This document shows positions 12,640 through 27,459 of a DNA stretch of 64,000 bases, in pieces. The notes below the pieces were generated by a model. That model was not told the origin of the DNA. It made no database searches and worked only from the letters and a program-made list of their open reading frames with translations. The stretch's first letter is position 1. Every line of letters starts with the position of its first letter. The stretch spans positions 13,743 through 77,742 of the forward strand of contig JAPPBX010000017.1 of NCBI GenBank assembly GCA_026702755.1, given 5' to 3'. The stretch is from Candidatus Poribacteria bacterium. GTDB taxonomy: Bacteria > Poribacteria > WGA-4E > WGA-3G. The position numbers and the translations under genes were made by a program.

Positions 12640-12731
12640 TTTTCCAATTGATGTGGTGGTACGCGGTTAAGCGTATTTTCACTGGTTCCGAGACCTTTTT
12701 ATTTTCTCTAACCTGTCAAAAGGAGTTTATC

Positions 12732-13526
12732 ATGAAAAGGGTTCTTGTGATTTTCGCGGTGATTGGGATACTCATCAGTTTTGCACCGTGTAGTAAAGCC
12801 AATCCGCCGGATGGATTAGTGCTACATCTGAGTTTCGATAAAAATAGCATTCAAGGCGATACCGCAAAAGATCTGTCTGAGGAAGGCAATGATGGGATCA
12901 TTAACGGTAACGCAACGATGGTCGCGGGAAAGCATGGCGACGCATTGGAGTTTGATGGCAAGGATGACTTTGTTGAAGTACCACTGGAAGATTCGATTAC
13001 CTTTTCCACTGGCGATTCACTAACAGTCCAAGTGTGGGTAAAAACAGACGATGAGCCACCAAAGAACGATGGGATTGTCGGAAACTATCGTCCGGGTACT
13101 GATGCGGTTTGGATACTCTCTGTCAGCGGCGATAACCCAGCGACTCGTGGCAAAATGGCTTTTAGTGTCCGGGACAAGGGACGTGCCAATAGTGCTGGGA
13201 TAACTTCTCCGGACTTCCTGAACGATGACAAATGGCATGTCCTTGCTGGTGTCCGAGACCAGAAAGCAAAAAAGATCAGATTCTACATAGACGGTAAGTT
13301 GATTGATGAAGTTGATGACAATACAAAGGACATCAACAGCGGGCAGTCAATTTGGGTAGGAGAGCATCTGAACCGGTATTACAAGGGACTCATTGATGAA
13401 GTGAAAGTGTGGAACCGTCCATTGACCGCCGCGGAACTTGAGCAATCAGGCCAACAACCGTCTGCTGTTGGTGCCTCCGGAAAGTTGACGACTGTATGGA
13501 GTGCGCTCAAAACAGCACACCGGTAG
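12732..13526 (+). CDS. Secreted LamG_3 / concanavalin A-like protein (paralog 2)
   Basis: AAGGAG RBS then ATG. Signal peptide MKRVLVIFAVIGILISFAPCSKA. LamG_3 motifs (GLVLHLSFD, LTVQVWV, C-terminal LIDEVKVWNRPLTAAELEQ). C-terminal tail GKLTTVWSALKTAHR. Confidence 0.7.
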   Translation: MKRVLVIFAVIGILISFAPCSKANPPDGLVLHLSFDKNSIQGDTAKDLSEEGNDGIINGNATMVAGKHGDALEFDGKDDFVEVPLEDSITFSTGDSLTVQVWVKTDDEPPKNDGIVGNYRPGTDAVWILSVSGDNPATRGKMAFSVRDKGRANSAGITSPDFLNDDKWHVLAGVRDQKAKKIRFYIDGKLIDEVDDNTKDINSGQSIWVGEHLNRYYKGLIDEVKVWNRPLTAAELEQSGQQPSAVGASGKLTTVWSALKTAHR

Positions 13527-13687: not shown

Positions 13688-14743
13688 TTAACTTAGCGAA
13701 AAAACGCTCACCCCACCCGACTCGTCACCAACAGCAATATACTGGTCGTTCGGTGACCAAACGAGGCTTGTGACCCCCGCTGCCAGGGCGGCTTCATGAA
13801 CCGCCAGAGAACTCATTCTGCCTCGCAATTGCCAGACGTAGATCAGACCGTCAGCACCACCTGAGGCGAGCAGTTTTCCGCGATGTTGAAAACGCACAAC
13901 GCTGAGAAAATCCTGATGCCTGGAAAGCGTGATCGGGTTGGTCCCAGCCGGGCCGCGACCGGAACAATCCCACACCGTAACTTCCTGACTGCCTCCGGTA
14001 GCCAAGTATCGACTCGTGGCATCCCACGAGAGTTCTCGCACTTTCGTCGGATAGCCAGTCATTTGCAAGTCTTCACCGGTAGACATAATCCAGAAATGTA
14101 CGGTCGAATCTTGATCTCCGGTGGCGATGTGTTTGCCGTCAGGGCTCCACGCAATTACCAGTGATGAGCCTTTCCATTCCAATCGGCGGACGGCTTCCGA
14201 CTGTTGCGGGTCCCACAGCGTGACACCGCCGTAGGCAATCGAGGCAAGTTGTCTTACACGCGGTCTCCACTGGAGATCAGAAATCGTGCTCTGATGATCG
14301 GAATATTCGCGAACAAGATCGCCGACAGCGTTCCAGAGTTTCAGCTTACGCCCCGCGGCAGAGGCGAGTATCGGTTTCTTGCCGCCACTCCAAGATAGAT
14401 GCTCAACCCATGCAGCGCCCCCGTCAAGCGAATGGGTCGCTTCGCCACTCGCCATATCCCACAACCGAATTTTCCCATCTTGTCCTGCGCTTGCAAGCAC
14501 CTTGCTGTCTGGACGCCATGCGATTGACATTGTACCGAATTCATGCCCTTCAAAGGCATGGATAACCGTTCGACGACCACCTTCAAAAATTGTAACCGGA
14601 CCGAGAACCGACGCGGCAGCAATGTATCTCCCATCAGGGGACCACGCCAGATCAATGACGTGGTCGCTGATGGTTACGGTCCAATTTTCGCGCAGTTGAG
14701 AGGGCTGGAAAAAGCGGTTGCTCAGGTTGTTCAAGCGAGACAT
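13688..14743 (-). CDS. WD40-repeat beta-propeller protein
   Basis: Multiple WD-like blades (AWSPDGRYIAAASVLGPVTIFE; IAWRPDSKVLASAGQDGKIRLWD; AWSPDGKHIATGDQDSTVHFW; VWSPNDQYIAVGDESGGVSVFS). Its start overlaps the 3' end of the upstream COG0523 gene by 13 nt. Confidence 0.8.
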   Translation of the reverse strand: MSRLNNLSNRFFQPSQLRENWTVTISDHVIDLAWSPDGRYIAAASVLGPVTIFEGGRRTVIHAFEGHEFGTMSIAWRPDSKVLASAGQDGKIRLWDMASGEATHSLDGGAAWVEHLSWSGGKKPILASAAGRKLKLWNAVGDLVREYSDHQSTISDLQWRPRVRQLASIAYGGVTLWDPQQSEAVRRLEWKGSSLVIAWSPDGKHIATGDQDSTVHFWIMSTGEDLQMTGYPTKVRELSWDATSRYLATGGSQEVTVWDCSGRGPAGTNPITLSRHQDFLSVVRFQHRGKLLASGGADGLIYVWQLRGRMSSLAVHEAALAAGVTSLVWSPNDQYIAVGDESGGVSVFSLS

Positions 14744-16083
14744 GCTTCAAATCCTTCAGTCAATTCAGACCGGTCGAGGTTGCGCCCGATGAAGATAAGG
14801 CTATTGTAGCGCGGTTCACCACCCCACGGGCGGTCGGGGCGACCGTCGAAGAGCATATGAACCCCTTGGAAGACGAATCGTTCTGGCTGCCCCTTGATGC
14901 TCAGAATACCTTTCATGCGGAAGATGTCGGGACCTTTTGTCCGAAGCAGGTTGCCAATCCAATCGTTCAGCCGGTCAGGGTCGAGGTCGCCGGGGGTTGT
15001 GATGCCGACCGATGTGACTTCGTCATCATGTTCGTGGTCCGGCTTAAATTCGCGTTCAACAACTGGCTTGACAAGGGTACCGCTGCCAAAGAGTTGTGCT
15101 TGAAATTCGTCGGGGTGATGCTCGGTAAACAGCGCGTAAGCACCGGGGCGGCCGATCTGCACGTCAAAGCGTAATTCGTCCGCCGTGAGATTCAATGCAA
15201 TGAGGTGTCCACCCGGTTGAAGGGTGCCACCCGCCGAAAGTTCATGCTCATCATCGGAGAAAACCATAACGACTGGCTCAACAGCGGACTCCAAAGCTTC
15301 ATCGGTTGACGCACTTACGGGCACCAACGCGACTTTCATCGCCGGGTCAGGACCTTCTTGGAGAACCAGTTCATGCGTGCCTGCCGAAAGGTCATAAACA
15401 CCAGCCCATTCAAACGGATACTCCGGTTCCATAAACTGTGGGTCAATCTCCATCGCCCGGTCCAGATCGAATCCACCGACATTGAGAATCTTGTCCATTT
15501 CAACCACGGCGTCTTTCGTTCGATAAATCTTCGCTGCAGCGTTCATGCTGCGAATTCTGGCTTCCAGTTGCTCTAACTCTCCCTCGGTCACAAGGTCAAT
15601 CTTGTTCAACAAAATGACATCGGCAAAGGCAATCTGTTCACGCGCCTCGTCGCTGTCATCGATGTGCTGCCAGATGTGTTTGGCATCAACCAGTGTCGTG
15701 ACGGAATCCAGTTGCAGTTTCTCCTGCATTTCGGTGTCCATAAAGAACGTCTGAGCAACTGGCCCGGGGTCCGCAAGTCCTGTGGTTTCGACCATGATGT
15801 AGTCAAACTTATCGCGACGCTTCATCAGATTCCCCAAAATACGGATGAGATCACCGCGCACCGTGCAGCAAATGCAACCATTGTTCATCTCGAAAATCTC
15901 TTCTTCGGCACCGATGACCAAATCATTATCGACACCGATCTCGCCAAACTCGTTTTCGATGACGGCGATACGTTTGCCATGGTTTTCGGTGAGAATGCGG
16001 TTGAGAAGCGTGGTTTTACCAGATCCCAAAAAGCCCGTCAACACGGTGACAGGAACTTGATTGTTTAGCATGGCTGTGTTCAT
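14731..16083 (-). CDS. COG0523-family (CobW/ZigA/YciC-like) metallochaperone GTPase
   Basis: Walker A VLTGFLGSGKTTLL. Metal-binding GCICCTVRGDL (CxCC) motif. ETTGLADPGPV switch region. C-terminal CobW_C-like region. AAGGAGAG RBS. Confidence 0.85.
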   Translation of the reverse strand: MNTAMLNNQVPVTVLTGFLGSGKTTLLNRILTENHGKRIAVIENEFGEIGVDNDLVIGAEEEIFEMNNGCICCTVRGDLIRILGNLMKRRDKFDYIMVETTGLADPGPVAQTFFMDTEMQEKLQLDSVTTLVDAKHIWQHIDDSDEAREQIAFADVILLNKIDLVTEGELEQLEARIRSMNAAAKIYRTKDAVVEMDKILNVGGFDLDRAMEIDPQFMEPEYPFEWAGVYDLSAGTHELVLQEGPDPAMKVALVPVSASTDEALESAVEPVVMVFSDDEHELSAGGTLQPGGHLIALNLTADELRFDVQIGRPGAYALFTEHHPDEFQAQLFGSGTLVKPVVEREFKPDHEHDDEVTSVGITTPGDLDPDRLNDWIGNLLRTKGPDIFRMKGILSIKGQPERFVFQGVHMLFDGRPDRPWGGEPRYNSLIFIGRNLDRSELTEGFEACLA

Positions 16084-16102
16084 CTTTCTCTCCTTGTAGA
16101 AT

Positions 16103-16363
16103 TTAGTCAGCGGTCAAGCTAACGATGTCCGTCTGATCCACCTCCGCCAGCGGTTTGTGAATCTTGTATTGCCGGGGCTTTCCCGGCGTCTCCATGATTG
16201 CAATGACCGTTTCAATAGGCGGGCAGCCCTCTTCGGTGCATTGCAACTGAGTAATCATCACAGAAATATCTTCTGATAGGTCAAAGACTTCGGAGACCCA
16301 CGATTTGACTTGGACGAGTTGCTGTGGGTCACTCTCTTTTTGCGAATTAAAAAAATTCAGCAC
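16103..16363 (-). CDS. Small hypothetical protein (86 aa) with a CTEEGC motif, first gene of the COG0523 operon
   Basis: The ORF sits 19 nt upstream of the COG0523 gene on the same strand. I recognise no family. Confidence 0.35.
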   Translation of the reverse strand: MLNFFNSQKESDPQQLVQVKSWVSEVFDLSEDISVMITQLQCTEEGCPPIETVIAIMETPGKPRQYKIHKPLAEVDQTDIVSLTAD

Positions 16364-16483
16364 TATTGTATGTCCTCCTTTAAACCGTCTGTCATCAGGC
16401 TCGTATCAATGTAGCAACGTTGTACGACAGGAACCTGCCTGGCGAACGCTTGCCACTGTGAAGCCTTGTAACTCACGGTTTGC

Positions 16484-16921
16484 TTATTTTTTCTCAAACC
16501 CGAACGAGGGTGATCGAAACCGATCAAAACGGTGACTATCAAAGGCTGAAGGCAACGGAAGTAGTGCATCTGCTCGTGCCACGGCTTCCGCCCAATCTAC
16601 GAGTCGCGCATAGTGTAGATGGAGATCTATCCGTCCTAACCACACGACACCGTGCGGTGAGGTGATACAGATGACATTTGCGAGATCGCACGGACCGAGA
16701 CAGCCTTCGCTGATTGTCAATGTTATTGAAGCCGACAGCCGCTTGTTCCGCCACTCCTTGATGAGCCACTCGACGGGGACAGGCGGTTTTCGTTTCTCTG
16801 TCACGCCACAACAACAACCCTTACAAACCAGTATATGCACTAAGACACGCCGCTTTGATGCGAGTTTGGGCGACGATTCGATTCTATTTGCTCTCATACC
16901 TTTTTCCTGCATACTGTTCAA
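16484..16921 (-). CDS. Thioredoxin-like [2Fe-2S] ferredoxin-fold protein (DUF1636-like), a family often adjacent to cobW/COG0523 genes
   Basis: Cys cluster VHILVCKGCCCG ... EGCLGPCDLANV. Size about 130-145 aa. The true start may be an internal Met. Confidence 0.5.
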   Translation of the reverse strand: MNSMQEKGMRANRIESSPKLASKRRVLVHILVCKGCCCGVTEKRKPPVPVEWLIKEWRNKRLSASITLTISEGCLGPCDLANVICITSPHGVVWLGRIDLHLHYARLVDWAEAVARADALLPLPSAFDSHRFDRFRSPSFGFEKK

Positions 16922-16975
16922 ATCTCCGCTTGGCGTTGCTGATGATATTCCTCTATTATCTGAACTTGATGTTTA

Positions 16976-17569
16976 TCAATCGCTTCCACGCTGTGAAGGC
17001 AAGTATTCGACGAGTTCATACCACTTTGCAGCCATCTCGTGTGCAGGAATAGGTTTCTTCTTCCATGCATCAGTACACCGTTGGCGATAGTCAAGTCCGT
17101 ATTCAGAAATAATCCACCGCTCGTAGTCGCCTATCCATGCGATACCTTGAGTGAGCAAGCTGAAAACGCGACGCCACGCTTCCACATCACATGGATGCGT
17201 AAGCTCAGGGAGTTGCTCCGGTTTCCATATAGGCAACGAAAAATCGACCGCTGCTGTCTGTTTGGGCGCGAATTTGTAACGCTGCAAGAAAAGCCCTCCT
17301 CGGCCCCCATCGCCATAGAAAAACCCGAATCCCCATAAAATAACTCGGCTTCTGCCAGAGTCACGCCACTCATAAGCGGTACTTCCGTGCTTGCCTTCCG
17401 GCGGTCGATGTTTGGTAAAACCGTAGGCGAGCAAAGCATTTTCCTCTGCCCGGCGAATATCCTGTCCCCAACACCACAACTGTTGGTCCAACAGCGTCGT
17501 CCCGATCTTCCTGACCTTGTTCAATGCACCTGACCAAAGCGCTGATTCGTCGTCAGTTCTGTCAGACAT
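16976..17569 (-). CDS. Hypothetical protein (197 aa)
   Basis: Long ORF with no recognisable motifs. It is co-oriented with the neighbouring zinc-related genes. Confidence 0.35.
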   Translation of the reverse strand: MSDRTDDESALWSGALNKVRKIGTTLLDQQLWCWGQDIRRAEENALLAYGFTKHRPPEGKHGSTAYEWRDSGRSRVILWGFGFFYGDGGRGGLFLQRYKFAPKQTAAVDFSLPIWKPEQLPELTHPCDVEAWRRVFSLLTQGIAWIGDYERWIISEYGLDYRQRCTDAWKKKPIPAHEMAAKWYELVEYLPSQRGSD

Positions 17570-17611
17570 GACTTATTCCCCCATAAGAAGCCGCTTCTAC
17601 CTCTTCTCAAG

Positions 17612-17800
17612 GTCACTAAGCAATTCAAAAGCGGTGTCAAGAACTGTCGGTTTCTTTGCACTATTTCTTAACATGAGCCACTTTTCCTCTGTGTTACACA
17701 CGATTCATCACTACCCTATGACATTCAAGGGTAGTGATGAATCTTATCGGCACTTATTTCAAAATAACCATCCGCTTCATCTGATGGAAAGACGGCGTGG
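17612..17800. repeat. Copy 1 of a ~180-bp conserved 3'-end element containing a 13-bp perfect inverted repeat (ttcatcactaccc ... gggtagtgatgaa)
   Basis: It is near-identical to 21817..21990 (aaggtcac[tg]aagcaattcaaaagcggtgtcaagaact.tcggtttctttgcactatttcttaacatgagcc ... ttcatcactaccc-loop-gggtagtgatgaatcttatcggcactta.ttcaaaataaccatccgctt). It overlaps the last codons of the 1078-aa gene. Confidence 0.6.
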
Positions 17801-20800
17801 ACAATCGGTAGAAATAAACACCACTTGAAACCCGCTCACCCACATCATTTCGACCATCCCAATAGGCAGCACGTGATCGACCTTGATAGAAACCCGCTGG
17901 CTTGAAGCCAAGCGAAAGCGTTCGCACCAATCGCCCTGTCGTATCGTAAATTGATAGCGTCACAGGGGCTGACTCCGAAAGGTGATAAGGTATCCACGTT
18001 TCCGGATTGAACGGGTTGGGATAATTCTGCAACACCAGGCTCTGCTTAGGTACGCCAATCCCCTTAAGTGTAATAGGAAGAACAGCGTTTGCAAGCGCCT
18101 CTGGTGTCACGACGAAACTCAGCTTCTCCGAAGCAATCTCTCCGGTTGCATCCGCAACGGTGACTTCCAGAGTGTCGCCAACCTGGACGACGCTCTGGTA
18201 GGAGAGATCGGCAGTCGCTGCGGCAAAGTAACCGTCTCGCACACGATTCGTCATAATAGCGTTCGTCCGCAGGTTTCGTACAGTGACCAGATAGCCTTCA
18301 AGGTTCTGCACACCTTCTAATTGCCCACTGACAACGAATGCCCAAGTACTACTTGGCGTGTCAATTGATCTTGCAATCGGTGCCGCAGGAACTTGCGGTT
18401 GATTTGTCCACGGTGCCCCGACAAAGGCAACCTGTCGGGCGTGCGGCACGTTGACGATGTATCCCTTTGCCCCTTCAATCGGGAATCCGTTGTCTGGTGC
18501 ATCCGGTGTCCAACCAACGAACTTTTGGTTGACATCATCAAGCTTAATTACCGTCGTTGCGCCAACCATCTCCGCCAGCGACCGAGCGTTCATCGGCGTG
18601 CGAGGCTTCAACGGTGAGGAGATCATGTTCAAGCCTTTGGAGAGAGAGGCGTAGTAGACCTGGCTGAAGTCATCTCCGTCTGTAGGCATTGGGGTGGCAA
18701 TGAAGCCGTGAGTCTGCTCTTCGCCGTCTTCCGAATGAATTTCAAACCAACCGACAATGACACCATCATCGTTAATGGCTTGTGCAACGGTGGTTTCTGC
18801 GCCGGGAATCCCGAATAGGTGAAACTCGCCCTCTGGAGTCCGTAGAAATCCCTGTACTTCAGAGAAATCAAGCGGCGCAGTGTGACCAACAATCCTGCCA
18901 TGATTGTCGATGTCATCGGGGAGCGTATGCCGCTCTGCGTTAATAGACAAAGTTGTGAACTCGCCATCCTCGTAAATTAGCCCATCAATAAACTCTGTTG
19001 GTGTAAATCCTGATTCAGGTAGATTCCAGCCCGCCATCACACCGGCGTTATTGATACCACGAAAAACATTGCCGCCAACACCGCCCGAAGAGGGAACTTG
19101 CCCGAAAGTCCCGTCCGGTTCGCGAAGAAAACTGGTGATGACGATGTCGTTTTCTGTTGGGAAATCGAAATGATACGAAGTGAGCTGACCGAGGTCGTTA
19201 ATGCCCCACCCGAAGTTATCGGCTGCACCCGGATTGACTGTGATAAACATACCGTCCGGTTCTCTCAGGAATCCGTGCTGCACGCCATCCGCGTCTTTAT
19301 ATCGACCCGTGATTTGGCCGGATGCATTGATTCCGAATGCCCGTGTGTCTGTTGCCCCTTCTGGAGCAATCGTCTCGAAGACACCATTTTTGAGCCAGAA
19401 TCCTTTCCGAACAGCGTTTGCATCCGCATAGCTCCCGACGATGTCTCCAGCGTTGTTGATACCGAAAAGCTCTGTCTCCGACGCACCTGCGAACGGTATA
19501 TCGACGACCTCAATATGATACGGTACACCTATTGTCAGGTGTATACCATCTGTGGAGAGGTCGGCGACAGACTCATGGCTGTGGTCAGCGTCATGTGATG
19601 GCGCAGGTCCCAGCGGTGCAACCCAATCCAAGGCTGTCATGTTCACTGGCTGCCCCTCGACAGAAAATGTCCTGCTGACTGATACTGTGTCAAGGTCAAC
19701 CTCAAGAATCTCACCGGTATTGGGATTGCTGACATAGGCGAACCCACTACCGACAGTCAGCGCGGGGCGGAGACCGTCCGCACCACTGAAATCTGCAACC
19801 ACTTGTGTCGATCCGAGCAACGTCCAATCGCTTGGGTTGAACACCTGTAACAGACCGTCAACGGTCAGCACTGCTAACCTATCTCCATGTTTCTTGTCAA
19901 AATCGAAACCTCTGTAGTCTGTTGGGAGTTGCTGAATGTCGTTCGGATCAAGCTCGGTCGAAGTGGGGTGGATACGGACGAGGGCTTTGTAGCCTGGATC
20001 CGGGCGGCTACCGTAATTGCCGATGGCAAACGGCTGGGCGTGATGAGACCTGACGATGCTCGTTCGCAGACCATCAGGATAAGCAATCTTGTGTGCGGAG
20101 AACAGACCGGTTACCGGGTCGTGGGTCATCACAAAAACGCCACCATCCCCCGTGCCATCCTCACGTTTCTCATTACAACCAGCTATGAAATGTTCACCGA
20201 CTATCGTTTCACCGTGCATACCGAGGCAGGATGCTTGGAAATCTTCCTTGTCGTTGAACGTTTGAACAATATTTCCGTGTTCATCAACTACCGCAAAGCC
20301 ACTCGGAAGTGATCCGAACTCACGGTCAGGATCCGGGAGCGAGAAAATTATCTTTCCACCGTGCACCGGTGCTCCAGCACCGTGCTGCGGCGCCGAGGTC
20401 AATATGAGCGTGTCCGGGTTGGGTAAGAACAGGTCTTCCTCGCGCACGGTGACGTTCTTTGAATCTACACCCTCACCAAAGTTGCCATCGAAGTGGATGT
20501 TAACGCGCCCATCGTGTGAAACAAAGTGAATGGGTCTTTGCGAGTTTGCGAGTTCGCCGGTCAGGTTGAACGGCAGCAAGCTCGGTCTGCCTTTCTCCTT
20601 ATCGAAATGATCGCCGTGTGCTTCGAGGTACAGACCGGAGTCGATGAAATTAACGCGATTGGCACCCGCTTGAACAGCGACTGCGATGCGCCCGCTTTCG
20701 GTCGTGTAAACACGTGCAGACCCTTCCACCATGAAGGTTTCTATCACTTCTCCATTGTCAAGTTCAATAAGTTGGAGTAAACCGGTTTCGCCATCTGCGA

Positions 20801-20927
20801 CAAGTAACCGACCCAGCGGCTCAGCATGCTCATCATCATACTCTTGTGCGATGGCTTGCATTGAGAGGATCGAACAAGACATCAAAAACATAAGCAGAGC
20901 CAGGGTGGCTCTCATGCAAGTAACCAT
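17754..20927 (-). CDS. Large secreted surface protein: N-terminal beta-propeller-like region (possibly AztD-like zinc chaperone fold), central HAF-family repeats, and a T9SS-type C-terminal sorting domain
   Basis: The ORF is open from 20990 (TTG). The likely start is the Met right after the conserved leader element (MVTCMRATLALLMFLMSCSILSMQAIA signal peptide). HAF-like repeats (FGINNAGDIVG, AFGINASGQITG, GWGINDLGQLT, FRGINNAGVMAG, AQAINDDGVIVG). C-terminal VLQNYPNPFNPETWIPYHL...VTLSIYDTTGRLVRTL...WDGRNDVGERVSSGVYFYRL is typical of TIGR04183/FlgD-Ig-like CTDs. Confidence 0.7.
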   Translation of the reverse strand: MVTCMRATLALLMFLMSCSILSMQAIAQEYDDEHAEPLGRLLVADGETGLLQLIELDNGEVIETFMVEGSARVYTTESGRIAVAVQAGANRVNFIDSGLYLEAHGDHFDKEKGRPSLLPFNLTGELANSQRPIHFVSHDGRVNIHFDGNFGEGVDSKNVTVREEDLFLPNPDTLILTSAPQHGAGAPVHGGKIIFSLPDPDREFGSLPSGFAVVDEHGNIVQTFNDKEDFQASCLGMHGETIVGEHFIAGCNEKREDGTGDGGVFVMTHDPVTGLFSAHKIAYPDGLRTSIVRSHHAQPFAIGNYGSRPDPGYKALVRIHPTSTELDPNDIQQLPTDYRGFDFDKKHGDRLAVLTVDGLLQVFNPSDWTLLGSTQVVADFSGADGLRPALTVGSGFAYVSNPNTGEILEVDLDTVSVSRTFSVEGQPVNMTALDWVAPLGPAPSHDADHSHESVADLSTDGIHLTIGVPYHIEVVDIPFAGASETELFGINNAGDIVGSYADANAVRKGFWLKNGVFETIAPEGATDTRAFGINASGQITGRYKDADGVQHGFLREPDGMFITVNPGAADNFGWGINDLGQLTSYHFDFPTENDIVITSFLREPDGTFGQVPSSGGVGGNVFRGINNAGVMAGWNLPESGFTPTEFIDGLIYEDGEFTTLSINAERHTLPDDIDNHGRIVGHTAPLDFSEVQGFLRTPEGEFHLFGIPGAETTVAQAINDDGVIVGWFEIHSEDGEEQTHGFIATPMPTDGDDFSQVYYASLSKGLNMISSPLKPRTPMNARSLAEMVGATTVIKLDDVNQKFVGWTPDAPDNGFPIEGAKGYIVNVPHARQVAFVGAPWTNQPQVPAAPIARSIDTPSSTWAFVVSGQLEGVQNLEGYLVTVRNLRTNAIMTNRVRDGYFAAATADLSYQSVVQVGDTLEVTVADATGEIASEKLSFVVTPEALANAVLPITLKGIGVPKQSLVLQNYPNPFNPETWIPYHLSESAPVTLSIYDTTGRLVRTLSLGFKPAGFYQGRSRAAYWDGRNDVGERVSSGVYFYRLSTPSFHQMKRMVILK

Positions 20928-21000
20928 AAATCGTGAAATAGCGACAGAAAAGTCGCGCTGAAAAAAATACGTAAACAATGTATTCTCCAATTTTTTTATC
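20928..21000 (-). promoter_or_regulatory. Conserved 5'-UTR element (copy A) that abuts the start codon and contains the GCGAC-N6-GTCGC stem-loop
   Basis: mRNA sense is aaaaaaattggagaataca.tgtttac.tatttttttc.g.gcgacttttctgtcgctatttc.cgatt.ATG. It is shared almost base-for-base with 26254..26330. Confidence 0.55.
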
Positions 21001-21335
21001 TAATTAGGGCTTACGCAGATCGCTCTTTTGTAGCATAAACTCTCTAACGAAGCGTCATAGACTCAAAATTGCGTAAGTCCTGCTAAATGAAATTACACTT
21101 AACGGCGAACATGCCACGCGAAACATATAAAACGCGTGTTGACATGTAGCCAGTAACGGATGCTTTGCGTAATAGATGTGCTTATGGACATCCCGAAAGC
21201 CGACCACGCATGGGTCCACAATCAGATAGCGTCTACTACAGAGCAAAGCAGCGGTGTACAAAGCGCGGGGCGCGTCATAGGTAACCCCGCGATCTTCGTA
21301 CAATCAAGGATATAAAGGAAAAACAAAATCTGCCT

Positions 21336-21707
21336 TTAAAAGGCATAATTTGCGAGTTCAGTGGAGAATACAGGTGGGGCACGACTTCGGGTGTGGATGA
21401 CCAGTTTTAGAGGGATAGAAGTGTCTTCATAAAGTCGGAGTTCAGTATGAAAAAAGAAAGGTGCGTTGAGAGCAAAAGGTTCAACCTCGAAACTGACGTG
21501 CTGGCTGCAAAAGAAGCAGGCTGCACAGGTATTCTCGCGCTGCGAGTGTTCGCTAGGGCAATGCTGGCAATGCGAATGTTCGCTATGATCGTGTGTCAGT
21601 TCGATGAGACCCAGCAGCGCGACGTAGCAACATAAACCTGCTAAAACACAGATTTTCAAACTACGCCTAAATATTAACTTGTTGGGAAAAGTCGTACCGT
21701 TTCTCAT
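21336..21707 (-). CDS. Small membrane-anchored His/Cys-rich protein (copy A)
   Basis: MRNGTTFPNKLIFRRSLKICVLAGLCCYVALLGLIELTHDHSEHSHCQHCPSEHSQRENTCAACFFCSQHV. There is a paralog at 26873..27220 with many synonymous codon differences over the first ~50 codons (GGT/GGC, CCC/CCA, TGC/TGT, TAC/TAT, CAC/CAT), which argues for a real coding gene under purifying selection. A consensus promoter lies 45-50 nt upstream. Confidence 0.6.
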   Translation of the reverse strand: MRNGTTFPNKLIFRRSLKICVLAGLCCYVALLGLIELTHDHSEHSHCQHCPSEHSQRENTCAACFFCSQHVSFEVEPFALNAPFFFHTELRLYEDTSIPLKLVIHTRSRAPPVFSTELANYAF

Positions 21708-21783
21708 ACACCAGAACCTATGGTTATGATTAAAAAAAATGAATGCGAATAAACTTGACGTAAATTATAGCACGCGATTGTGT

Positions 21784-21812
21784 CAATGTCAAATAGAACT
21801 TAAAAAGTTGAT
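21784..21812 (-). promoter_or_regulatory. Perfect-consensus sigma-70 promoter (TTGACA-17-TATAAT) reading toward the small His/Cys ORF and leader A
   Basis: The minus strand reads tTTGACAttgacacaatcgcgtgcTATAATtta. The -35 hexamer is duplicated in tandem (TTGACATTGACA). Confidence 0.6.
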
Positions 21813-21816
21813 AAGG

Positions 21817-21990
21817 TCACGAAGCAATTCAAAAGCGGTGTCAAGAACTCTCGGTTTCTTTGCACTATTTCTTAACATGAGCCGTTACACTCCTGCGAAT
21901 ATACAGATTCATCACTACCCAATGACCTTCAAGGGTAGTGATGAATCTTATCGGCACTTACTTCAAAATAACCATCCGCTTGAACGGTTT
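21817..21990. repeat. Copy 2 of the ~180-bp conserved 3'-end element with a 13-bp hairpin (ttcatcactaccc aatgaccttca agggtagtgatgaa)
   Basis: See 17612..17800. It lies immediately 3' of the ZnuA-like gene (minus strand) and its last bases overlap that gene's stop. Confidence 0.6.
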
Positions 21991-22954
21991 ATAACTCCGA
22001 TTTCCCAATCAAAGCATGGACAATCGTATCAATATTATGTCGGATCATCCCGATGTAGGTACCTTCAGGAGTTCCCTCGTTTCCCATAGCATCTGTGAAG
22101 AGCACACCACCGATCTTCACATCAAATCCTTTTGACTTCACAGCGGCTTTCACGGCTTCGAGACTCCGTGGAGAGACGGATGACTCTACAAAAATAGCAG
22201 AGATACGCCGGTCCGCAATAAACGTCGCCAATTCCTGTACATCAGCGATACCGACTTCTGTCGCAGTGCTAACACCTTGTAATCCGCGCACCTCAAACCC
22301 GTACCCCTTTCCGAAGTAGTTAAAACAGTCGTGCGCCGTCACAAGGACGCGTTGCTGAGATGGCACGCGTTCCACTTGCGACTTTACGTATGCGTCGAGT
22401 TCCATGAGTTTCGTGAGGTAGCGTTCAGCATTGCTTCGGTATAGGACAGTATTATCCGGATCGAATTCACTCAGGGCATCGCGAACCTTTCCCGCCGCTA
22501 GCATCCAAAGTTTCACGTCAAACCATAGGTGCGGATCGTAGAGTCCCTCGTATTCTGCGGGTGTTAGCAGTAGACTCCGATCTACGGCATCTGTTACGGC
22601 GACCGTCAGCGTGTCCTCCGACATCTTCGCAAGGATGTCCACCATTTTTGCTTCAAGGTGCAGCCCGTTATAGAAGATGATGTGTGCTGAACTCAGTTTT
22701 TGAACATCTTTAGGTGTCAGGTTGTAAAAGTGTGGGTCTACGCCAGGTTCCACTATCCCGGTCACCTCAACGCGCGTACCGCCAACATTTTTAACAATAT
22801 CAGTAATCATACCGATCGTGGCAACAACGCGAAGTTTGTCGCCTGTGGCAGCACCCGGTTGTCCCTTCGGATCACAGCCAGCCCATACCAATATACCTAT
22901 CAAACACACTGAAATGTATATTCTCTGCATAATTTTATGCATTTTCTGCCTCAC
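21989..22954 (-). CDS. znuA: Periplasmic metal (Zn/Mn)-binding lipoprotein of an ABC uptake system, ZnuA/TroA family
   Basis: Lipoprotein signal (...LIGILVWAGC). TroA-fold signatures (LRVVATIGMITDIVKNVGG, VDPHFYNLTPKDV, DPHLWFDV, VTAHDCFNYFGKGYGFE). No znuB or znuC gene is adjacent. Confidence 0.75.
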   Translation of the reverse strand: MRQKMHKIMQRIYISVCLIGILVWAGCDPKGQPGAATGDKLRVVATIGMITDIVKNVGGTRVEVTGIVEPGVDPHFYNLTPKDVQKLSSAHIIFYNGLHLEAKMVDILAKMSEDTLTVAVTDAVDRSLLLTPAEYEGLYDPHLWFDVKLWMLAAGKVRDALSEFDPDNTVLYRSNAERYLTKLMELDAYVKSQVERVPSQQRVLVTAHDCFNYFGKGYGFEVRGLQGVSTATEVGIADVQELATFIADRRISAIFVESSVSPRSLEAVKAAVKSKGFDVKIGGVLFTDAMGNEGTPEGTYIGMIRHNIDTIVHALIGKSEL

Positions 22955-23408
22955 ATGTTAAACAGGTCTTACAGAGGTGCCGATTCACGAGATGCGCGGA
23001 GGCGATTAAAACGCCGCCGATACTGTAGAAGACCACTTCAAAAGTGCCTTCAACGGCTATCTGAGCGGTAGCGATGAATGCTAACGCCGCTATCAGTACC
23101 AAAAACGCTCGCCAGTTTCGGTGGCGTCGAACACCCCACGCTAAACTCCCGATTGCCAGTCCAATTGCGCTCGCAATAAGGATAAACTCAACACGCTCAT
23201 TCGCAAGGAAACTCAACCCAATCAAAGGTAAAACTGTTCCTAAAAGCGGCATCGCGAGGCAGTGGATCGCGCATGCGAAAGGGAGACACGCCGCGCACGC
23301 GACAGAGAGACACGCGCCAGTTGTATTCGCCAATTCGTGGTTAAAATATCTTTTCAATTTTATCTCCTTAGAAAATCGAGAACGGCGGGCGATGATAGAA
23401 ATCATCAT
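22935..23408 (-). CDS. MerC-family inner-membrane metal transport protein
   Basis: TM1 Cys motif GACLSVACAACLPFACAIHCLA (compare MerC GCAACFPALA). LIGLSFLANE. C-terminal CKTCLTCE. Four predicted TM helices. Confidence 0.55.
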   Translation of the reverse strand: MMISIIARRSRFSKEIKLKRYFNHELANTTGACLSVACAACLPFACAIHCLAMPLLGTVLPLIGLSFLANERVEFILIASAIGLAIGSLAWGVRRHRNWRAFLVLIAALAFIATAQIAVEGTFEVVFYSIGGVLIASAHLVNRHLCKTCLTCEAENA

Positions 23409-23423
23409 CCCCGTCCTACAATT

Positions 23424-25703
23424 TTAAAAATTAAGTTTATACAAGAGTTTCGCATTCCGTCCTGGTTCCGGCATCGCCGATTTGATGCGGGACAGATGTT
23501 CGCGATACGTTGTATCAAAGAGGTTTTCAATCTCGAAAACGACCATGTTCTCAAGCTGCCACCACGAAAAATTGAGATAGCTCCCGATATCATAGACGAG
23601 ATAGCCGTCTGTCGGTTCCTCAAATTCACCGAGTCGGGTCTGGCTGCCTGAAAAACGGGACGCGACATACAAATGCAACGGGGCAGGCGTGTAACTGATG
23701 ACGAATTTACCGTTGAGGGGTGGGACACGCTCCAGCGGTCGCCCATTGCTTTGAATCGTTCCGTTGACGTAACTCATATTGAGCTGAAGATGGACTTGCG
23801 GCAGGACCTCACTCCCTATTTGGATTTCAGCCCCATCCATCACAACGTCGTGTCCCATGTATTGATAAATCCACAACCATCCTGCTGCGCCGCTGCCCCA
23901 CTCTTTTTCACCGCTGTTCATCGGAACGAGATAGTTCTGTATCTGATTCCTGAAAAGCGCAAGATTGAGTCTGAATCTGTCGTCTGCGTATTTGACGAAG
24001 AGTTCAGTGCCGTATCCGTTTTCGGGTCCCAGTTCTGAATTGCCGATTTCGTAGGAATAGACAGCCAAGTGCGGACCATCGCTGAAAAGCTCCTCGATCC
24101 CCGGTGCGCGAAACGTTTTCATCAGGGTAGCCCCGGTACTTAGCCTATCCGTCCAATGATAAATTCCAGAGGCAGCCCCTGAGAAACCGTTGAAATCGCG
24201 GCGTTGGACGGCTCCGGCTCGGACAACTGCCCCAGGTCTAAACGGTTCCGAACGTCTAATGTCGTAGCGGATAGCCCCTTGTAAGGTGAGTTTGTCGAAG
24301 TTACGCTGGTTTAGATAAAATCCCGCCAACGCGAGCTCACGGGTGTGAGGAGTCCAGTAAAATCCGTCTGTGGCGTGGTCTCGGTATTCCCACGAAACAC
24401 CTGCAATCGCGTTGTCTAATAGATGCGCCATCGCTGAGACGTTGTAGGTTAACAGACCGAATTCGACACCAAGTCTCCCGTTGGATTCCCATTCCTGATG
24501 CTGATAACGCGTATAGGCAGTCTGGAGTTTTACCTTTTCAAGTATTGCTGTATTGAAGCGGTACTCCATCTGTCCTTCATAACGTTGCTTGTCGAGTTCG
24601 ATGTTGACCCCGCTAATATGTCCTTCTGGTGAGCCGGGAACGCCGTAATCTGAACGATAACTGCTTCCCGAGGCACCGATGAAACCCCACGGCTTAATCA
24701 GCGAAGCACCGCCTGAAAAATTAACATTTGAAAGGGCAGTGTTTTTGAGTACACCTACCGGCGTTTGTATGTCAGATGCAAGCCGCCGATTCCATTCTAT
24801 ATTTCCCGCAAAATCACCAATTGGGAACGTAAAACCTGTCGTTCCGGTCAAACCTGAGTTGACAGATTCACCTTGGAACGTTAGATGCATATCCAGCCGT
24901 CTCGGTAGAATTTGCGGTATGTGATTGCTTTTGACATTGATGACACCGCCCAACGTACTTGAGCCGTAAATGAGCGATGCGGGACCCCGCGTAATTTCAA
25001 CACCTTCAGCGATCGTCGGATCAATCGATACGGCATGGTCGGCACTGGATGCCGATTTATCGCCCGTTCGCTCGCCGTTTTCGAGAATAAGCAGCCTGTC
25101 ACCGCCCAATCCACGAATAACGGGACGCGCAATCGCCCGTCCCATCGTTCGTTGTGAAATGCCCGTCTCATCTGCCAATGTGTTCGCCAAGGTCATCCCT
25201 AACCGTCTTTGGAGTTCCGCTTCACCCAATGCTAAGTCGGTTGTTTCCTCAAACTGTGAAAGAGAGCGATTTGAACCGTATACCCTGATGGTTTGCAGTT
25301 GAAACGGCAACGTCTCCAGTTCAATTTTGAGATAAGGCGTGGAGGCATTGACATCAATTACCTGTTCAAACCGCTGATAACCGACCTTCAGAAACTGGAG
25401 CGTCTGTTGTCCTTCCGGCACTGCGTCAAATTTAAACCGACCGTTTGCATCGGTCCGGACGCTTCCCTCAAGTCCCGCAATCTGGACTCTCACTCCACCA
25501 AGTCGAGCATGCGTCCGTACTTCCGTAACTTCTCCTTCCAAGGATCGCATTGGGTTCTGTGCACTTTGGGAATCCCTGAGATAGCAAAATAGGCATACTA
25601 TTATCCCAGACACCAACACGAGTAGGTAGGGACGCTTTCTAAGAATCCCTACCGTGGGAGATCTATGCGGACAGGCACAAGTGCTTGAACAAGTGCTTAA
25701 CAT
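23424..25703 (-). CDS. TonB-dependent outer-membrane receptor with an N-terminal carboxypeptidase-regulatory-like domain (ZnuD-like role inferred from context)
   Basis: CarbopepD_reg-like segment (GEVTEVRTHARLGGVRVQIAGLEGSVRTDANGRFKFDAVPEGQQTL). Plug (ITRGPASLIYGSSTLGGVINV). Long beta-barrel. C-terminal aromatic residue (...LLYKLNF). Confidence 0.8.
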   Translation of the reverse strand: MLSTCSSTCACPHRSPTVGILRKRPYLLVLVSGIIVCLFCYLRDSQSAQNPMRSLEGEVTEVRTHARLGGVRVQIAGLEGSVRTDANGRFKFDAVPEGQQTLQFLKVGYQRFEQVIDVNASTPYLKIELETLPFQLQTIRVYGSNRSLSQFEETTDLALGEAELQRRLGMTLANTLADETGISQRTMGRAIARPVIRGLGGDRLLILENGERTGDKSASSADHAVSIDPTIAEGVEITRGPASLIYGSSTLGGVINVKSNHIPQILPRRLDMHLTFQGESVNSGLTGTTGFTFPIGDFAGNIEWNRRLASDIQTPVGVLKNTALSNVNFSGGASLIKPWGFIGASGSSYRSDYGVPGSPEGHISGVNIELDKQRYEGQMEYRFNTAILEKVKLQTAYTRYQHQEWESNGRLGVEFGLLTYNVSAMAHLLDNAIAGVSWEYRDHATDGFYWTPHTRELALAGFYLNQRNFDKLTLQGAIRYDIRRSEPFRPGAVVRAGAVQRRDFNGFSGAASGIYHWTDRLSTGATLMKTFRAPGIEELFSDGPHLAVYSYEIGNSELGPENGYGTELFVKYADDRFRLNLALFRNQIQNYLVPMNSGEKEWGSGAAGWLWIYQYMGHDVVMDGAEIQIGSEVLPQVHLQLNMSYVNGTIQSNGRPLERVPPLNGKFVISYTPAPLHLYVASRFSGSQTRLGEFEEPTDGYLVYDIGSYLNFSWWQLENMVVFEIENLFDTTYREHLSRIKSAMPEPGRNAKLLYKLNF

Positions 25704-25713
25704 GGGAGTCCCC

Positions 25714-26253
25714 TTATTGAACAGTTACCGGTATGAGAAGTGCTCCCGTGAAGTCTGGATGGTCCCCGTGAAGGAGTTGAAGTTTGATGCTCGTTTCGCC
25801 TGCCTTCAATCCCTCGAGTCCAAATCCTAATTCTTCACCATGTTCTTCTTCACCATGTTCTTCTTCACCGTGTTCGTGTTCATCTTCATGTTCCAGATGA
25901 ATCTCAATAATAGCGGAATCGTACTCCGACAAGCCCAAGTTGAAGACTTCCTCATGTCCATGCTCATCCACTGCCTCTACTTCATCGAGATGGACTTCCG
26001 CTTCGTTCGCGTCAATAAATACAACATGGACCTCAATCTCTTCACCAACGCCAACGGTGAGACCGCCTTCATGGGCACCTTGATGTTGATGATAGACCAC
26101 TTCTCCATTAACTTCCAGGTTAAAGCCGTCGGCATCGGCATGCATGGGGGCATCCGTTTCGTGGTCGTGGTCATGGTCATCTTCAACAATAGGGTTGTCA
26201 CTTTCGCCACAACCTCCCATGAGGGGAAGTACGGTGACAAAAGTTAGTAACAT
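25714..26253 (-). CDS. His/Asp/Glu-rich periplasmic lipoprotein (putative low-affinity zinc-binding protein)
   Basis: The likely start is the Met right after the conserved leader element (MLLTFVTVLPLMGGCG, lipobox LMGGC). His-rich tracts (EDDHDHDHETDAPMHADADG, HLEHEDEHEHGEEEHGEEEHGEE, LLHGDHPDF). The ORF as printed continues upstream to 26385 by translating the conserved leader. Confidence 0.65.
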   Translation of the reverse strand: MLLTFVTVLPLMGGCGESDNPIVEDDHDHDHETDAPMHADADGFNLEVNGEVVYHQHQGAHEGGLTVGVGEEIEVHVVFIDANEAEVHLDEVEAVDEHGHEEVFNLGLSEYDSAIIEIHLEHEDEHEHGEEEHGEEEHGEELGFGLEGLKAGETSIKLQLLHGDHPDFTGALLIPVTVQ

Positions 26254-26330
26254 TAATCGAGAAATAGCGACAGAAAAGTCGCACCGAAAAAAATAGGTAA
26301 ACATTTGTATTCTCCAATTTTTTTTAAACT
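26254..26330 (-). promoter_or_regulatory. Conserved 5'-UTR element (copy B) that abuts the start codon and contains the GCGAC-N6-GTCGC stem-loop
   Basis: Plus strand reads cgagaaatagcgacagaaaagtcgcaccgaaaaaaataggtaaacatttgtattctccaattttttt. Compare 20941-21000 gaaatagcgacagaaaagtcgcgctgaaaaaaatacgtaaacaatgtattctccaattttttt. Confidence 0.55.
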
Positions 26331-26872
26331 TTTTTAATCTGATGGTACACAGTATGTGCCCATTGCTTCTAAAATGGAATTGCACTTAACAACGAAAATG
26401 CCACGCGAAAGATATAAAACGCGCGGTGACATGCCGCGAGTATCTCATGCTTTGTTAAAATAATAGATGTACCTATAGACTTCCTAAAAGCGTACCATTC
26501 ATTGATACACAATTAGGTAGCATCTACTATAACCCAAGTTGCTACTAACAAATTTTGGTGTTTGTGCTTGGGTATTTCTGTGTGTTTCAACACCACTTTT
26601 CAAGTATTTCCTCACCCCAGATGAAGTTTAATAAAATATTTGGGTAATTCTATGTTCTCCAGACCCGGTAGGTGCGGTTTCCCAACCGCACCGGGCATCG
26701 GTAAAAATTACCCGATTAAATTCTTAATCTTCATGAGAGGCGATATATCTATAGAATATAGAAGAACACCACAATATGTTGCAAAGCAGAGATGTACAAA
26801 GCGCGGGACGCGTAAATAAGGACCCGCAATCTTTGGACAATAAGAGATATAAAGGAAAAACAAAATCTGCCT

Positions 26873-27220
26873 TTAAATGGCATAATTTGCGAGTTCAGTG
26901 GAAGGTATAGGCGGGGCACGACTCCAAGCGGTCGTGGTAAATCTTAAAGGAAGAAAAACGATTTCATACAGCGGAAGCGTCGTACTTGGAAGAAACGGAG
27001 AGGTGAGTACTACCACCTCAATTTCCTCTCCGACGTGTTGGCTGTTGTAGACACAGGCTGTACAAGTTTCCTCAGAATGCGCGTGTTCACAATGATCGTG
27101 ATCATGCGTGAGTGCTATGACACTCAGCAACGCAACATAACAAAATAAACCTATTAAAATGCCGGTTTTCAAACTACGCCTAAAGACAAGCGTGTTTGGA
27201 AAAGCGATGCCGTTTCTCAT
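26873..27220 (-). CDS. Small membrane-anchored His/Cys-rich protein (copy B)
   Basis: MRNGIAFPNTLVFRRSLKTGILIGLFCYVALLSVIALTHDHDHCEHAHSEETCTACVYNSQHV. See the paralog at 21336..21707. Confidence 0.6.
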   Translation of the reverse strand: MRNGIAFPNTLVFRRSLKTGILIGLFCYVALLSVIALTHDHDHCEHAHSEETCTACVYNSQHVGEEIEVVVLTSPFLPSTTLPLYEIVFLPLRFTTTAWSRAPPIPSTELANYAI

Positions 27221-27273
27221 AACCTATGCCTGTGTTATTATCAAAGCTCAGATTGCCAACAAACTTGCGATAT

Positions 27274-27302
27274 ATTATATCATACGATTATGTCAATGTC
27301 AA
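27274..27302 (-). promoter_or_regulatory. Perfect-consensus sigma-70 promoter (TTGACA-17-TATAAT) for the small His/Cys ORF and leader B
   Basis: The minus strand reads tTTGACAttgacataatcgtatgaTATAATatatcgc. The -10 is embedded in the palindrome GATATA-A-TATATC. Confidence 0.6.
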
Positions 27303-27459
27303 ATAAAAGTGGAAATCATACCAGAACCATTTAGTTTTCTTGTAGGAGGGATCCCCGAATTCCGACTGCTGACACCCTCTCAGAAAAGATAGGCTTGCAC
27401 TTATCGGCGCGATGCTTTATCATATTCACCATGAGATTACCCAAAGGAGACATAATTAG

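Follow-up and report, generated by a model that had tools for sequence, protein, structure and literature searches.

An AztD-family zinc-chaperone propeller linked to a predicted surface-sorting module in a zinc-uptake island of Candidatus Poribacteria

We report here the analysis of a gene in a 64,000-nucleotide stretch of Candidatus Poribacteria DNA (NCBI GenBank assembly GCA_026702755.1, contig JAPPBX010000017.1, positions 13,743 to 77,742; hereafter the window). The gene is located on the minus strand of an island of zinc-uptake genes and encodes a fusion protein in which a domain of the AztD zinc-chaperone family is followed by HAF repeats, two stalk domains and a C-terminal domain (CTD) resembling the type A sorting domains of type IX secretion systems (T9SS). 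As judged from its sequence and context, the product most likely serves a Candidatus Poribacteria sponge symbiont as an exported protein that captures zinc and is linked to zinc starvation. What is new is a well-supported, so far unannotated link of a predicted zinc-chaperone fold to a putative surface-sorting module in an uncultured symbiont phylum. Nothing like this architecture was described in the literature searched on AztD and on T9SS with zinc acquisition. To our knowledge, AztD has so far been described solely as a small chaperone, either periplasmic or (in Gram-positives) a lipoprotein, for the binding protein of an ABC transporter.

The N-terminal part of the protein (amino acids ~38-440, 19608..20816, minus strand; residues are numbered throughout from ATG 20927) is a genuine AztD-family beta-propeller that keeps both zinc sites of the crystallized AztD proteins. 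The NCBIfam family AztD NF038015 matched residues 43-432 over profile positions 1-353 of 356 (E=8.2e-39). Because its score of 133.3 bits is well below the NCBIfam naming cutoff of 400 bits, the domain was overlooked by automatic annotation; it is a divergent member or subfamily of AztD, and its fusion architecture differs from the one that the family models. A phmmer search against PDB sequences returned the two crystallized AztD proteins alone (6cmk/6n01, E=1.3e-31; 6ck1, E=1.1e-24), with overall identities of 26-30%. An AlphaFold2 model, based on an alignment of 54 homologues, had a predicted local distance difference test score (pLDDT) mostly above 85 over residues 40-440, and crystal structures of AztD filled Foldseek ranks 1-9 in the PDB (E 4e-26 to 6e-22, target-normalized TM 0.86-0.89, root-mean-square deviation 2.4-2.7 Å over ~405 columns), with the next match falling to E 1e-12. 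The predicted fold is an eight-bladed beta-propeller as in 6ck1/6cmk. A first-pass annotation of this DNA had described about 450 amino acids of propeller-like repeats and had suggested, as its weakest call, an AztD-like fold, to be checked by a HMMER profile search and by structure prediction with Foldseek. Both were run and both match AztD, and together with the PDB sequence match and the conserved ligands they turn this call into the best supported one.

In the AztD of Paracoccus denitrificans (PdAztD), site 1 is formed by His124, His167 and His218, and site 2 by His99, His102, Asp104 and the C-terminal His408; Gly100 and a disulfide are conserved in AztD as well (PMC6689063). Residues H134, H182 and H238 of the Poribacteria protein align with the three site 1 ligands and are kept in 43-44 of the 54 aligned sequences. 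The site 2 counterparts are positioned in the motif H104-G105-D106-H107-F108-D109, in which H104, G105, H107 and D109 align with PdAztD H99, G100, H102 and D104. All six mappable zinc ligands are retained in 37-45 of the 54 sequences, and the remaining sequences mostly lack an AztD domain. The sole cysteines of the mature AztD domain, C234 and C251, align with the conserved disulfide pair of AztD. That the protein keeps six ligands, its turn glycine and both disulfide cysteines at 26-30% identity argues for selection on metal binding.

The propeller is followed by a His-rich linker (amino acids 441-456, PAPSHDADHSHESVAD, 19560..19607, minus strand). By alignment to Citrobacter koseri AztD (CkAztD), its position is that of the C-terminal His ligand and the His tract of free-standing AztD, and the linker residues H449 and H451 are conserved in the 54-sequence alignment. 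The fourth ligand of site 2 may tentatively be assigned to H445, H449 or H451.

The open reading frame (ORF) encoding these domains is long and intact. According to the ORF listing and translation, the minus-strand frame is open without interruption from 20990 down to its stop codon (17754-17756), and a start at ATG 20927 gives 1057 amino acids. The N-termini of homologues P0001, P0003-P0005, P0008 and P0012 are located 17 codons further upstream, at MFTYFFQRDFSVAISRFM, and the same 17 upstream codons are present in frame in the window, beginning with TTG 20978 behind a GGAG Shine-Dalgarno sequence. Based on these homologue starts and the TTG with its Shine-Dalgarno sequence, TTG 20978 is probably the true start, giving 1074 amino acids; we accordingly place the whole gene for the AztD-HAF-CTD protein at 17754..20978. 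The first-pass annotation had recognized a gene at 17754-20927, and this gene is real, with the likelier start lying upstream of the one assumed. The His motifs (HGDHFD, amino acids 104-109; SHDADHSHE, amino acids 444-452), the HAF-type repeats (six GIN/AIN-x-G-x-[IV]-[VT]-G units) and the tail (NYPNPFNPETWIPY...GVYFYRL...KRMVILK) that it had pointed out are likewise all present, and the HAF and type A sorting-domain profiles are matched above their cutoffs, as described below. An assembly chimera or a pseudogene was ruled out, given the intact ORF and the occurrence of the same architecture in three homologue clusters with 45 members.

At its N terminus, the protein carries a Sec-type signal peptide (amino acids 1-27, ...SMQAIA/QEY, 20847..20927, minus strand). 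Sequence inspection identified a hydrophobic core followed by an AxA cleavage motif (AIA/QE) that is kept in homologues, and the AlphaFold2 model has a helix at amino acids 2-21 and then a disordered stretch in this region. A lipoprotein anchored through the conserved Cys18 was considered and rejected: there is no canonical lipobox, position -1 is S or F, and the conserved AxA site is located downstream.

Pfam and NCBIfam profile scans with curated cutoffs (TIGR02913, 22.65 bits; TIGR04183, 23 bits; PF13860, 27 bits) gave matches of the protein to AztD, HAF, TIGR04183 and FlgD_ig that are far above chance level. Pfam matched the C-terminal FlgD_ig/Por_Secre_tail region alone, and NCBIfam matched three families, AztD NF038015, HAF TIGR02913 and TIGR04183. 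The HAF-repeat domain (amino acids 457-748, 18684..19559, minus strand) contains six to seven repeats. Its TIGR02913 match scored 37 bits in three stretches, the motif can be seen six times in the sequence, and the indel boundaries among homologues described below delimit the domain. Residues 457-748 were modeled as a repeated all-beta domain with a pLDDT of ~80, which fits the HAF matches.

The remaining C-terminal third is a generic and abundant Poribacteria module composed of a stalk and a putative sorting tag. Two beta-sandwich 'stalk' domains (amino acids 749-965, 18033..18683, minus strand; model pLDDT ~90) precede a T9SS type-A-like C-terminal sorting domain (amino acids 966-1057, 17757..18032, minus strand). 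A first full-length AlphaFold2 run left amino acids 748-865 unmodeled. A search with residues 745-960 recovered 224 homologues, mostly Poribacteria proteins of 280-375 amino acids that consist of the stalk region and CTD alone. In a second AlphaFold2 run, based on a 107-sequence alignment, the C-terminal 313 residues were modeled with a mean pLDDT of 84.5 as two beta-sandwich domains with the CTD sandwich after them. Foldseek matched this model to Ig-like stalks of adhesins, to the IgSF-CTD of gingipain RgpB (5ag8, E=1.2e-5) and to PorU (6za2). The CTD itself reached 30.9 bits for TIGR04183 and 34 bits for FlgD_ig PF13860, both above cutoff, and 22.7 bits for Por_Secre_tail PF18962, which is under its cutoff of 27. 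The stalk-CTD module is present in at least 224 Poribacteria proteins, and NCBI labels several of them 'T9SS type A sorting domain-containing protein'. HAF repeats, like Ig-like stalks, are features typically seen in extracellular proteins. The presence of the same stalk-CTD on many unrelated payloads argues that the tail acts as a working sorting signal. Clusters of adjacent genes with the same FlgD_ig/T9SS-like CTD were also observed in other Poribacteria (L033, 5170-14096; L035, 10001-19509; L034, 6948-10864); they include proteins of 890-1175 amino acids, and no recognizable T9SS component was present nearby.

All close homologues are from Candidatus Poribacteria, and they fall into three classes. 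In the class of the window gene, AztD, HAF and stalk-CTD occur together (P0001-P0003, 91-93% identity, three clusters with 45 member sequences). The commonest class consists of AztD and stalk-CTD without HAF (760-786 amino acids), and a third class of ~640 amino acids combines a signal peptide, a His tract, HAF and stalk-CTD without AztD. In DNA comparisons, the window gene is 90-93% identical to the HAF-less genes on either side of a clean 879-nucleotide gap (amino acids 457-749) and 91% identical to the HAF-only gene from amino acid 445 on, and the His-rich linker is the junction common to the window gene and the HAF-only paralogues. The architecture is a recombinational mosaic and not an assembly artefact, with AztD and HAF as apparently exchangeable payloads set by recombination on a generic Poribacteria stalk-CTD carrier.

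An exhaustive HMMER search of 1.84 billion representatives found 627 AztD relatives, mostly of 400-480 amino acids, among which the Poribacteria fusion forms one cluster at 50% identity. A hidden Markov model of the Poribacteria-family CTD gave 0 matches among the non-Poribacteria AztD homologues checked, which were the representatives listed from this search and the hits of a separate homologue search; very divergent CTDs could escape this search. Other kinds of AztD fusions occur in other phyla (P0029, P0231, P0237, P0248, P0030, P0032 and P0240). In SAR202/Chloroflexi proteins, the AztD domain is inserted inside ZnuA; further fusions combine AztD with ZinT and ZnuA or with ZinT and a second propeller, and a protein of 2432 amino acids has six AztD-like stretches followed by a ZIP transporter.

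The gene is headed by a leader cassette (20928..21805, minus strand) composed of a sigma-70 promoter (-35, 21792-21787; -10, 21769-21764), a small His/Cys ORF and a terminator-like hairpin as well as untranslated sequence that is conserved. A second copy (26254..27315, minus strand; promoter 27302-27274) heads the neighboring unit that encodes a lipoprotein, a TonB-dependent receptor, a MerC-like protein and a ZnuA-like substrate-binding protein (SBP). Window positions 20925-21805 and 26251-27315 are homologous in blocks with 77-91% identity, and each copy has a 12/12 sigma-70 promoter (TTGACA-17-TATAAT with TG extension) with identical -35 and -10 elements. The first-pass annotation had noted a leader common to the gene and the ZnuA/receptor unit; this was borne out, in that the common leader is a duplicated cassette, conserved and locus-specific across Poribacteria. 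A scan with the promoter core, using one genome per species, gave 30 matches, all in Candidatus Poribacteria metagenome-assembled genomes. In all 30, the small ORF comes next, and each promoter site heads either a receptor unit or an AztD/COG0523 unit. Three arrangements follow the small ORF: the lipoprotein-receptor-MerC-ZnuA unit, the AztD-stalk-CTD gene, or a CTD remnant with ORF145-ORF86-COG0523-WD40, which is the arrangement of species that lost the AztD gene. Every species carrying the AztD gene has a separate cassette copy for it. Since the promoter/small-ORF cassette is duplicated and locus-specific, co-regulation of the gene with the receptor/SBP unit is well supported at the level of sequence. 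Near-invariance of the promoter region extends well past the -35 and -10 hexamers and points to an overlapping operator; the conserved region reads TTGACATTGACAyAATCGyrTGmTATAATTTATCGCAAG.

The leader appears to be more than a leader, encoding a conserved small His/Cys-rich membrane protein of 123 amino acids as the first ORF of the cassette (21336..21707, minus strand). Its paralogue in the second cassette (26873-27220, minus strand) has a weak DUF2946 match (E=0.011), which was the sole family signal. The small proteins of both window cassettes have 115-123 amino acids, an N-terminal membrane helix and the pattern THDH...C-x-A-C...SRAPP. The small ORF is clearly coding, because the alignment of its 34 Poribacteria copies has indels whose lengths are divisible by three. 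Across Poribacteria (105-123 amino acids), the pattern after the membrane helix reads THDH..H..C-x-A-C..SQH...SRAPP. The protein could be a metal sensor or chaperone.

A terminator-like hairpin (TGCCTTTTAAAGGCA) with a T-run is located at the stop codon of the small ORF, and ~400 nucleotides of conserved non-coding sequence separate the small ORF from the main gene (20928-21335 and 26305-26872, minus strand), followed by conserved first codons of the downstream gene. Further hairpins of the leader are a GC-rich one (CGCGGGG...CCCCGCG) and another just before the start codon. This non-coding stretch may be an attenuator or another cis-regulatory RNA. Rfam gave nothing at gathering thresholds over the window and nothing at E<=1 over 20850-21850, on which basis a riboswitch or other known RNA in the leader was rejected. 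The leader of the receptor unit alone contains an insertion of ~250 nucleotides at ~26530-26780, parts of which match positions 6517-6644 of L002 and 19406-19453 of L001, two related loci; it is possibly a small mobile repeat, similar to a miniature inverted-repeat transposable element.

The island around the gene has the following order, read 5' to 3' on the minus strand: promoter and small ORF, lipoprotein, receptor, MerC-like protein, SBP, second promoter and small ORF, AztD-fusion gene, then three small ORFs, a COG0523 GTPase and a WD40 protein. The same gene order is found in the relatives L001 and L002. In published work, the hallmark neighbors of AztD are ZnuA-family SBPs and genes of the CobW/COG0523 type. 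The upstream zinc-uptake unit (21989..26304, minus strand) was assigned from Pfam, NCBIfam and the sequences themselves. Its receptor (23424-25703) has ZnuD as its best-scoring NCBIfam family, with 175.9 bits against a cutoff of 950, so that the equivalog level is not reached, and the lipoprotein SBP (21989-22954) is AztC/ZnuA-like, with AztC as its best match at 215 bits against a cutoff of 350. Between them, Pfam and NCBIfam place a MerC-family membrane protein (22935-23408), which might be an inner-membrane entry route for zinc. No znuBC/aztAB permease or ATPase was found in the island in the Pfam/NCBIfam scan of the window ORFs. A His-rich lipoprotein (25714-26304, minus strand), identified by sequence inspection and without a Pfam or NCBIfam match, has a position next to the receptor that is kept in every Poribacteria locus. 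It is a candidate zinc binder associated with the receptor, is encoded directly upstream of it and contains a DDHDHDHE tract and (EHGEE)3 repeats arising from a 15-nucleotide tandem repeat.

Downstream of the AztD-fusion gene, Pfam and NCBIfam scans delimit a set of genes at 13688..17569 (minus strand), namely ORF197, the Cys-rich ORF145, ORF86, the COG0523 GTPase (14731-16083), which is a zinc-chaperone-type enzyme resembling ZigA/YeiR, and the WD40 protein (13688-14743). The 145-amino-acid Cys-rich ORF (CKGCCCG motif) and the 86-amino-acid ORF precede the COG0523/WD40 pair (block 13688-16921, minus strand), and the GTPase gene overlaps the WD40-repeat gene by 13 nucleotides. The ORF145-ORF86-COG0523-WD40 block is kept in all examined related loci that reach far enough downstream, with ORF145 missing from several. 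In L002, a Fur-family gene with Zur-type palindromes is present, and a HAF-only paralogue with a retained His-rich N-terminal tract fills the slot of the AztD-fusion gene, between the ZnuA and COG0523 genes and beside the Fur-family gene.

We propose, with moderate confidence, that the protein is co-expressed with the receptor/SBP unit, exported past the outer membrane by way of its CTD, captures zinc and feeds it to the ZnuD-like receptor. The AztD-fusion gene and the receptor-SBP operon would be switched on together, presumably under zinc scarcity. After Sec export, the CTD would carry the protein across the outer membrane, and the protein would remain at the cell surface or close to it. The AztD propeller and the His tract would there bind Zn2+ from the sponge mesohyl and hand it to the co-expressed TonB-dependent receptor, from which it would reach the periplasmic AztC/ZnuA-like binding protein. 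If true, this would place zinc capture of the chaperone type beyond a diderm's outer membrane, as a protein-based route of zinc scavenging, and it would provide a concrete, testable cargo for the abundant 'T9SS-type' CTDs of Poribacteria, an uncultured sponge-symbiont phylum outside the group with a demonstrated T9SS. Annotation of such proteins just as 'T9SS type A sorting domain-containing protein' leaves the zinc link invisible in databases. A bolder version is tentative, and we consider it rather doubtful: AztD, displayed on the outer face of the outer membrane by a T9SS-like CTD pathway outside the FCB (Fibrobacterota-Chlorobiota-Bacteroidota) superphylum, would be a protein 'zincophore' feeding the ZnuD-like receptor, and the stalk-CTD with the promoter/small-ORF cassette would allow plug-and-play exchange of zinc-starvation payloads (AztD, HAF or both) by recombination between strains.

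Several observations weigh against capture of zinc at the cell surface, and a number of them favor the main rival, a periplasmic AztD chaperone, possibly tethered by its C-terminal module, that passes zinc to the adjacent AztC/ZnuA-like SBP, with a tail that is merely a FlgD-type Ig-like fold without a role in export. We consider this explanation unlikely, on the following balance. Characterized AztD proteins are periplasmic and dock directly with AztC (PMC6689063). An SBP with AztC as its best NCBIfam match is encoded next door, so that a periplasmic hand-off fits at least as naturally as one at the surface, and the partnership of AztD with SBPs is underlined by the Chloroflexi proteins in which AztD is fused directly into ZnuA. 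Reviews restrict T9SS to Bacteroidota/FCB (PMC12421860, PMC10515386, PMC12398890), a superphylum to which Poribacteria do not belong, and in the literature searched, Poribacteria and T9SS appeared together only in incidental co-mentions. No T9SS core genes were found among the window ORFs scanned with Pfam/NCBIfam across 64 kb or in the 20-kb neighborhoods of L001, L002 and three other CTD genes, and the tail falls short of the Por_Secre_tail cutoff. By contrast, the tail passes TIGR04183 and has the typical type-A motifs NYPNPF...GVYFY...K-x-x-x-x-x-K, the HAF repeats and Ig-like stalks are of an extracellular type, and the stalk-CTD is found on hundreds of Poribacteria proteins with varied payloads in the pattern of a sorting tag. 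Moreover, the His-Tyr-His loop, which PdAztC inserts into AztD (PMC6689063), is missing from the SBP.

Exported zinc capture is also weighed down by the wide shortfall of the AztD score from its naming cutoff, and by what was found on zinc-dependent control. L002 has the palindrome TGTTATAnTATAACA in three copies in the interval from the Fur-family gene to ZnuA; a search of the window leaders for this L002-type Zur box with <=3 mismatches gave a single site, with 3 mismatches, that overlaps the -10 box of the receptor-unit leader. No recognizable Zur box was found, and a Zur operator of the L002 type in the window leaders was rejected. No Fur/Zur gene was found in the window or in loci other than L002. 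With neither a Zur box match nor a Fur/Zur gene in the window, zinc as the regulatory signal is something that we only infer, from gene content. The gene is also dispensable, having been lost in several Poribacteria species. Among the Poribacteria species representatives (L003-L032), it is intact in L021, L022 and L028, deleted with a CTD remnant left in L004 and L032, and lacking in L012, L026 and L031, where the cassette runs directly into ORF145. The second cassette is wholly absent in L013, L016 and L030, the last of which (OZ220722.1) is the representative closest to the window, with 93-99% protein identity of the flanking genes.

Such gene presence and absence among species, together with the tail repeats and with CTD remnants after ZnuA, makes this a highly rearranged locus, as would be expected if the protein were a surface adhesin or host-interaction protein whose AztD-like propeller has lost its role in zinc and which is in the zinc island just because the locus is a recombination hot spot with exchange of cassettes. 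The HAF-only paralogue without AztD in the same slot of L002 and the many Poribacteria repeat proteins that carry this CTD fit with this as well. We nevertheless regard it as improbable, given that the six mappable ligands are all kept, along with the turn glycine and both disulfide cysteines, at the low identity noted above and that every species with the gene has a dedicated copy of the zinc-uptake operon's promoter cassette; even the HAF-only paralogue has a His-rich N-terminal tract and is positioned between ZnuA and COG0523 genes, near Zur-type boxes. The least probable explanation, and in our view a very unlikely one, sees the protein as a buffer or store of zinc, extracellular or periplasmic, that sequesters zinc or excludes competing metals without a dedicated hand-off partner. 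Two conserved zinc sites and His-rich tracts, with 20 His in the AztD part of the protein, would suit such a role, as would the dispensability of the gene in several species, and P. denitrificans knockouts pointed to a part in the accumulation of zinc in the periplasm and not to an essential step of uptake (PMC6689063). However, the gene is organized with uptake genes (receptor, SBP and COG0523) and not with genes for efflux or storage, and site 2 of the known AztD proteins is the transfer site (PMC6689063).

Compared with the AztD proteins of P. denitrificans and C. koseri (6ck1, 6cmk and 6n01), the N-terminal domain is similar in its predicted eight-bladed propeller, zinc sites, disulfide and His-rich tract after the last blade, and in its neighborhood with a cluster A-I SBP and a COG0523 GTPase. 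The known AztD is a free periplasmic protein of ~400 amino acids, whereas here it is the N-terminal domain of a fusion of 1057-1074 amino acids, and the cluster contains a TonB-dependent receptor but no adjacent aztAB permease/ATPase. Operationally, AztD denotes a free periplasmic chaperone of an aztABCD operon, and in this sense the whole protein is not an AztD. The other AztD fusions share the use of AztD as a module in larger secreted zinc-uptake proteins, but their partners are ZnuA, ZinT or a ZIP transporter, and none of the non-Poribacteria AztD homologues checked has this CTD.

The overall layout is similar to that of Bacteroidota T9SS type-A CTD cargo such as gingipain RgpB, with a Sec signal, a payload, Ig-like domains and a C-terminal beta-sandwich of ~90 amino acids, and to that of PorZ (two propellers and CTD), which was Foldseek rank 10. 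Unlike this cargo, the protein is from a phylum outside Bacteroidota/FCB. A metal chaperone as a T9SS cargo payload was not found described in the searched literature. With respect to the proposed logic, an exposed His-rich zinc binder co-expressed with uptake machinery, parallels exist in ZnuD zinc-piracy receptors and in the pneumococcal Pht histidine-triad proteins, which feed AdcAII. The fold of the Pht proteins is unrelated, and the match of the neighboring receptor to ZnuD is weak (176 bits against 950). Extracellular HAF-repeat proteins (TIGR02913) share the GIN-x-x-G-x-[IV]-[VT]-G signature and apparent export, whereas here the repeats lie between a zinc chaperone and a sorting module as a block that can be swapped; we know of no function assigned to HAF proteins.

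A tail repeat (17609..17777, minus strand) was identified by a search for repeats and inverted repeats. It comprises the last 8 CTD codons and a hairpin with a perfect 16-bp stem, and a second copy is located after ZnuA (21813-21981), the two direct repeats being 96-97% identical. In L001, L004, L010, L026, L031 and L032, a CTD remnant of 52 amino acids directly follows ZnuA. These repeats and remnants appear to be left over from a former CTD gene or to result from unequal recombination.

Elsewhere in the window, a protein of 1031 amino acids (5352-8447, plus strand) consists of a sigma-70 domain of the extracytoplasmic function type fused to a BNR/Sortilin-like region of ~850 amino acids. Four small Laminin_G_3 (concanavalin-like) proteins are encoded at 8630-9451, 12648-13526, 33165-33953 and 36120-36896, interspersed with genes for ABC-2 permeases.

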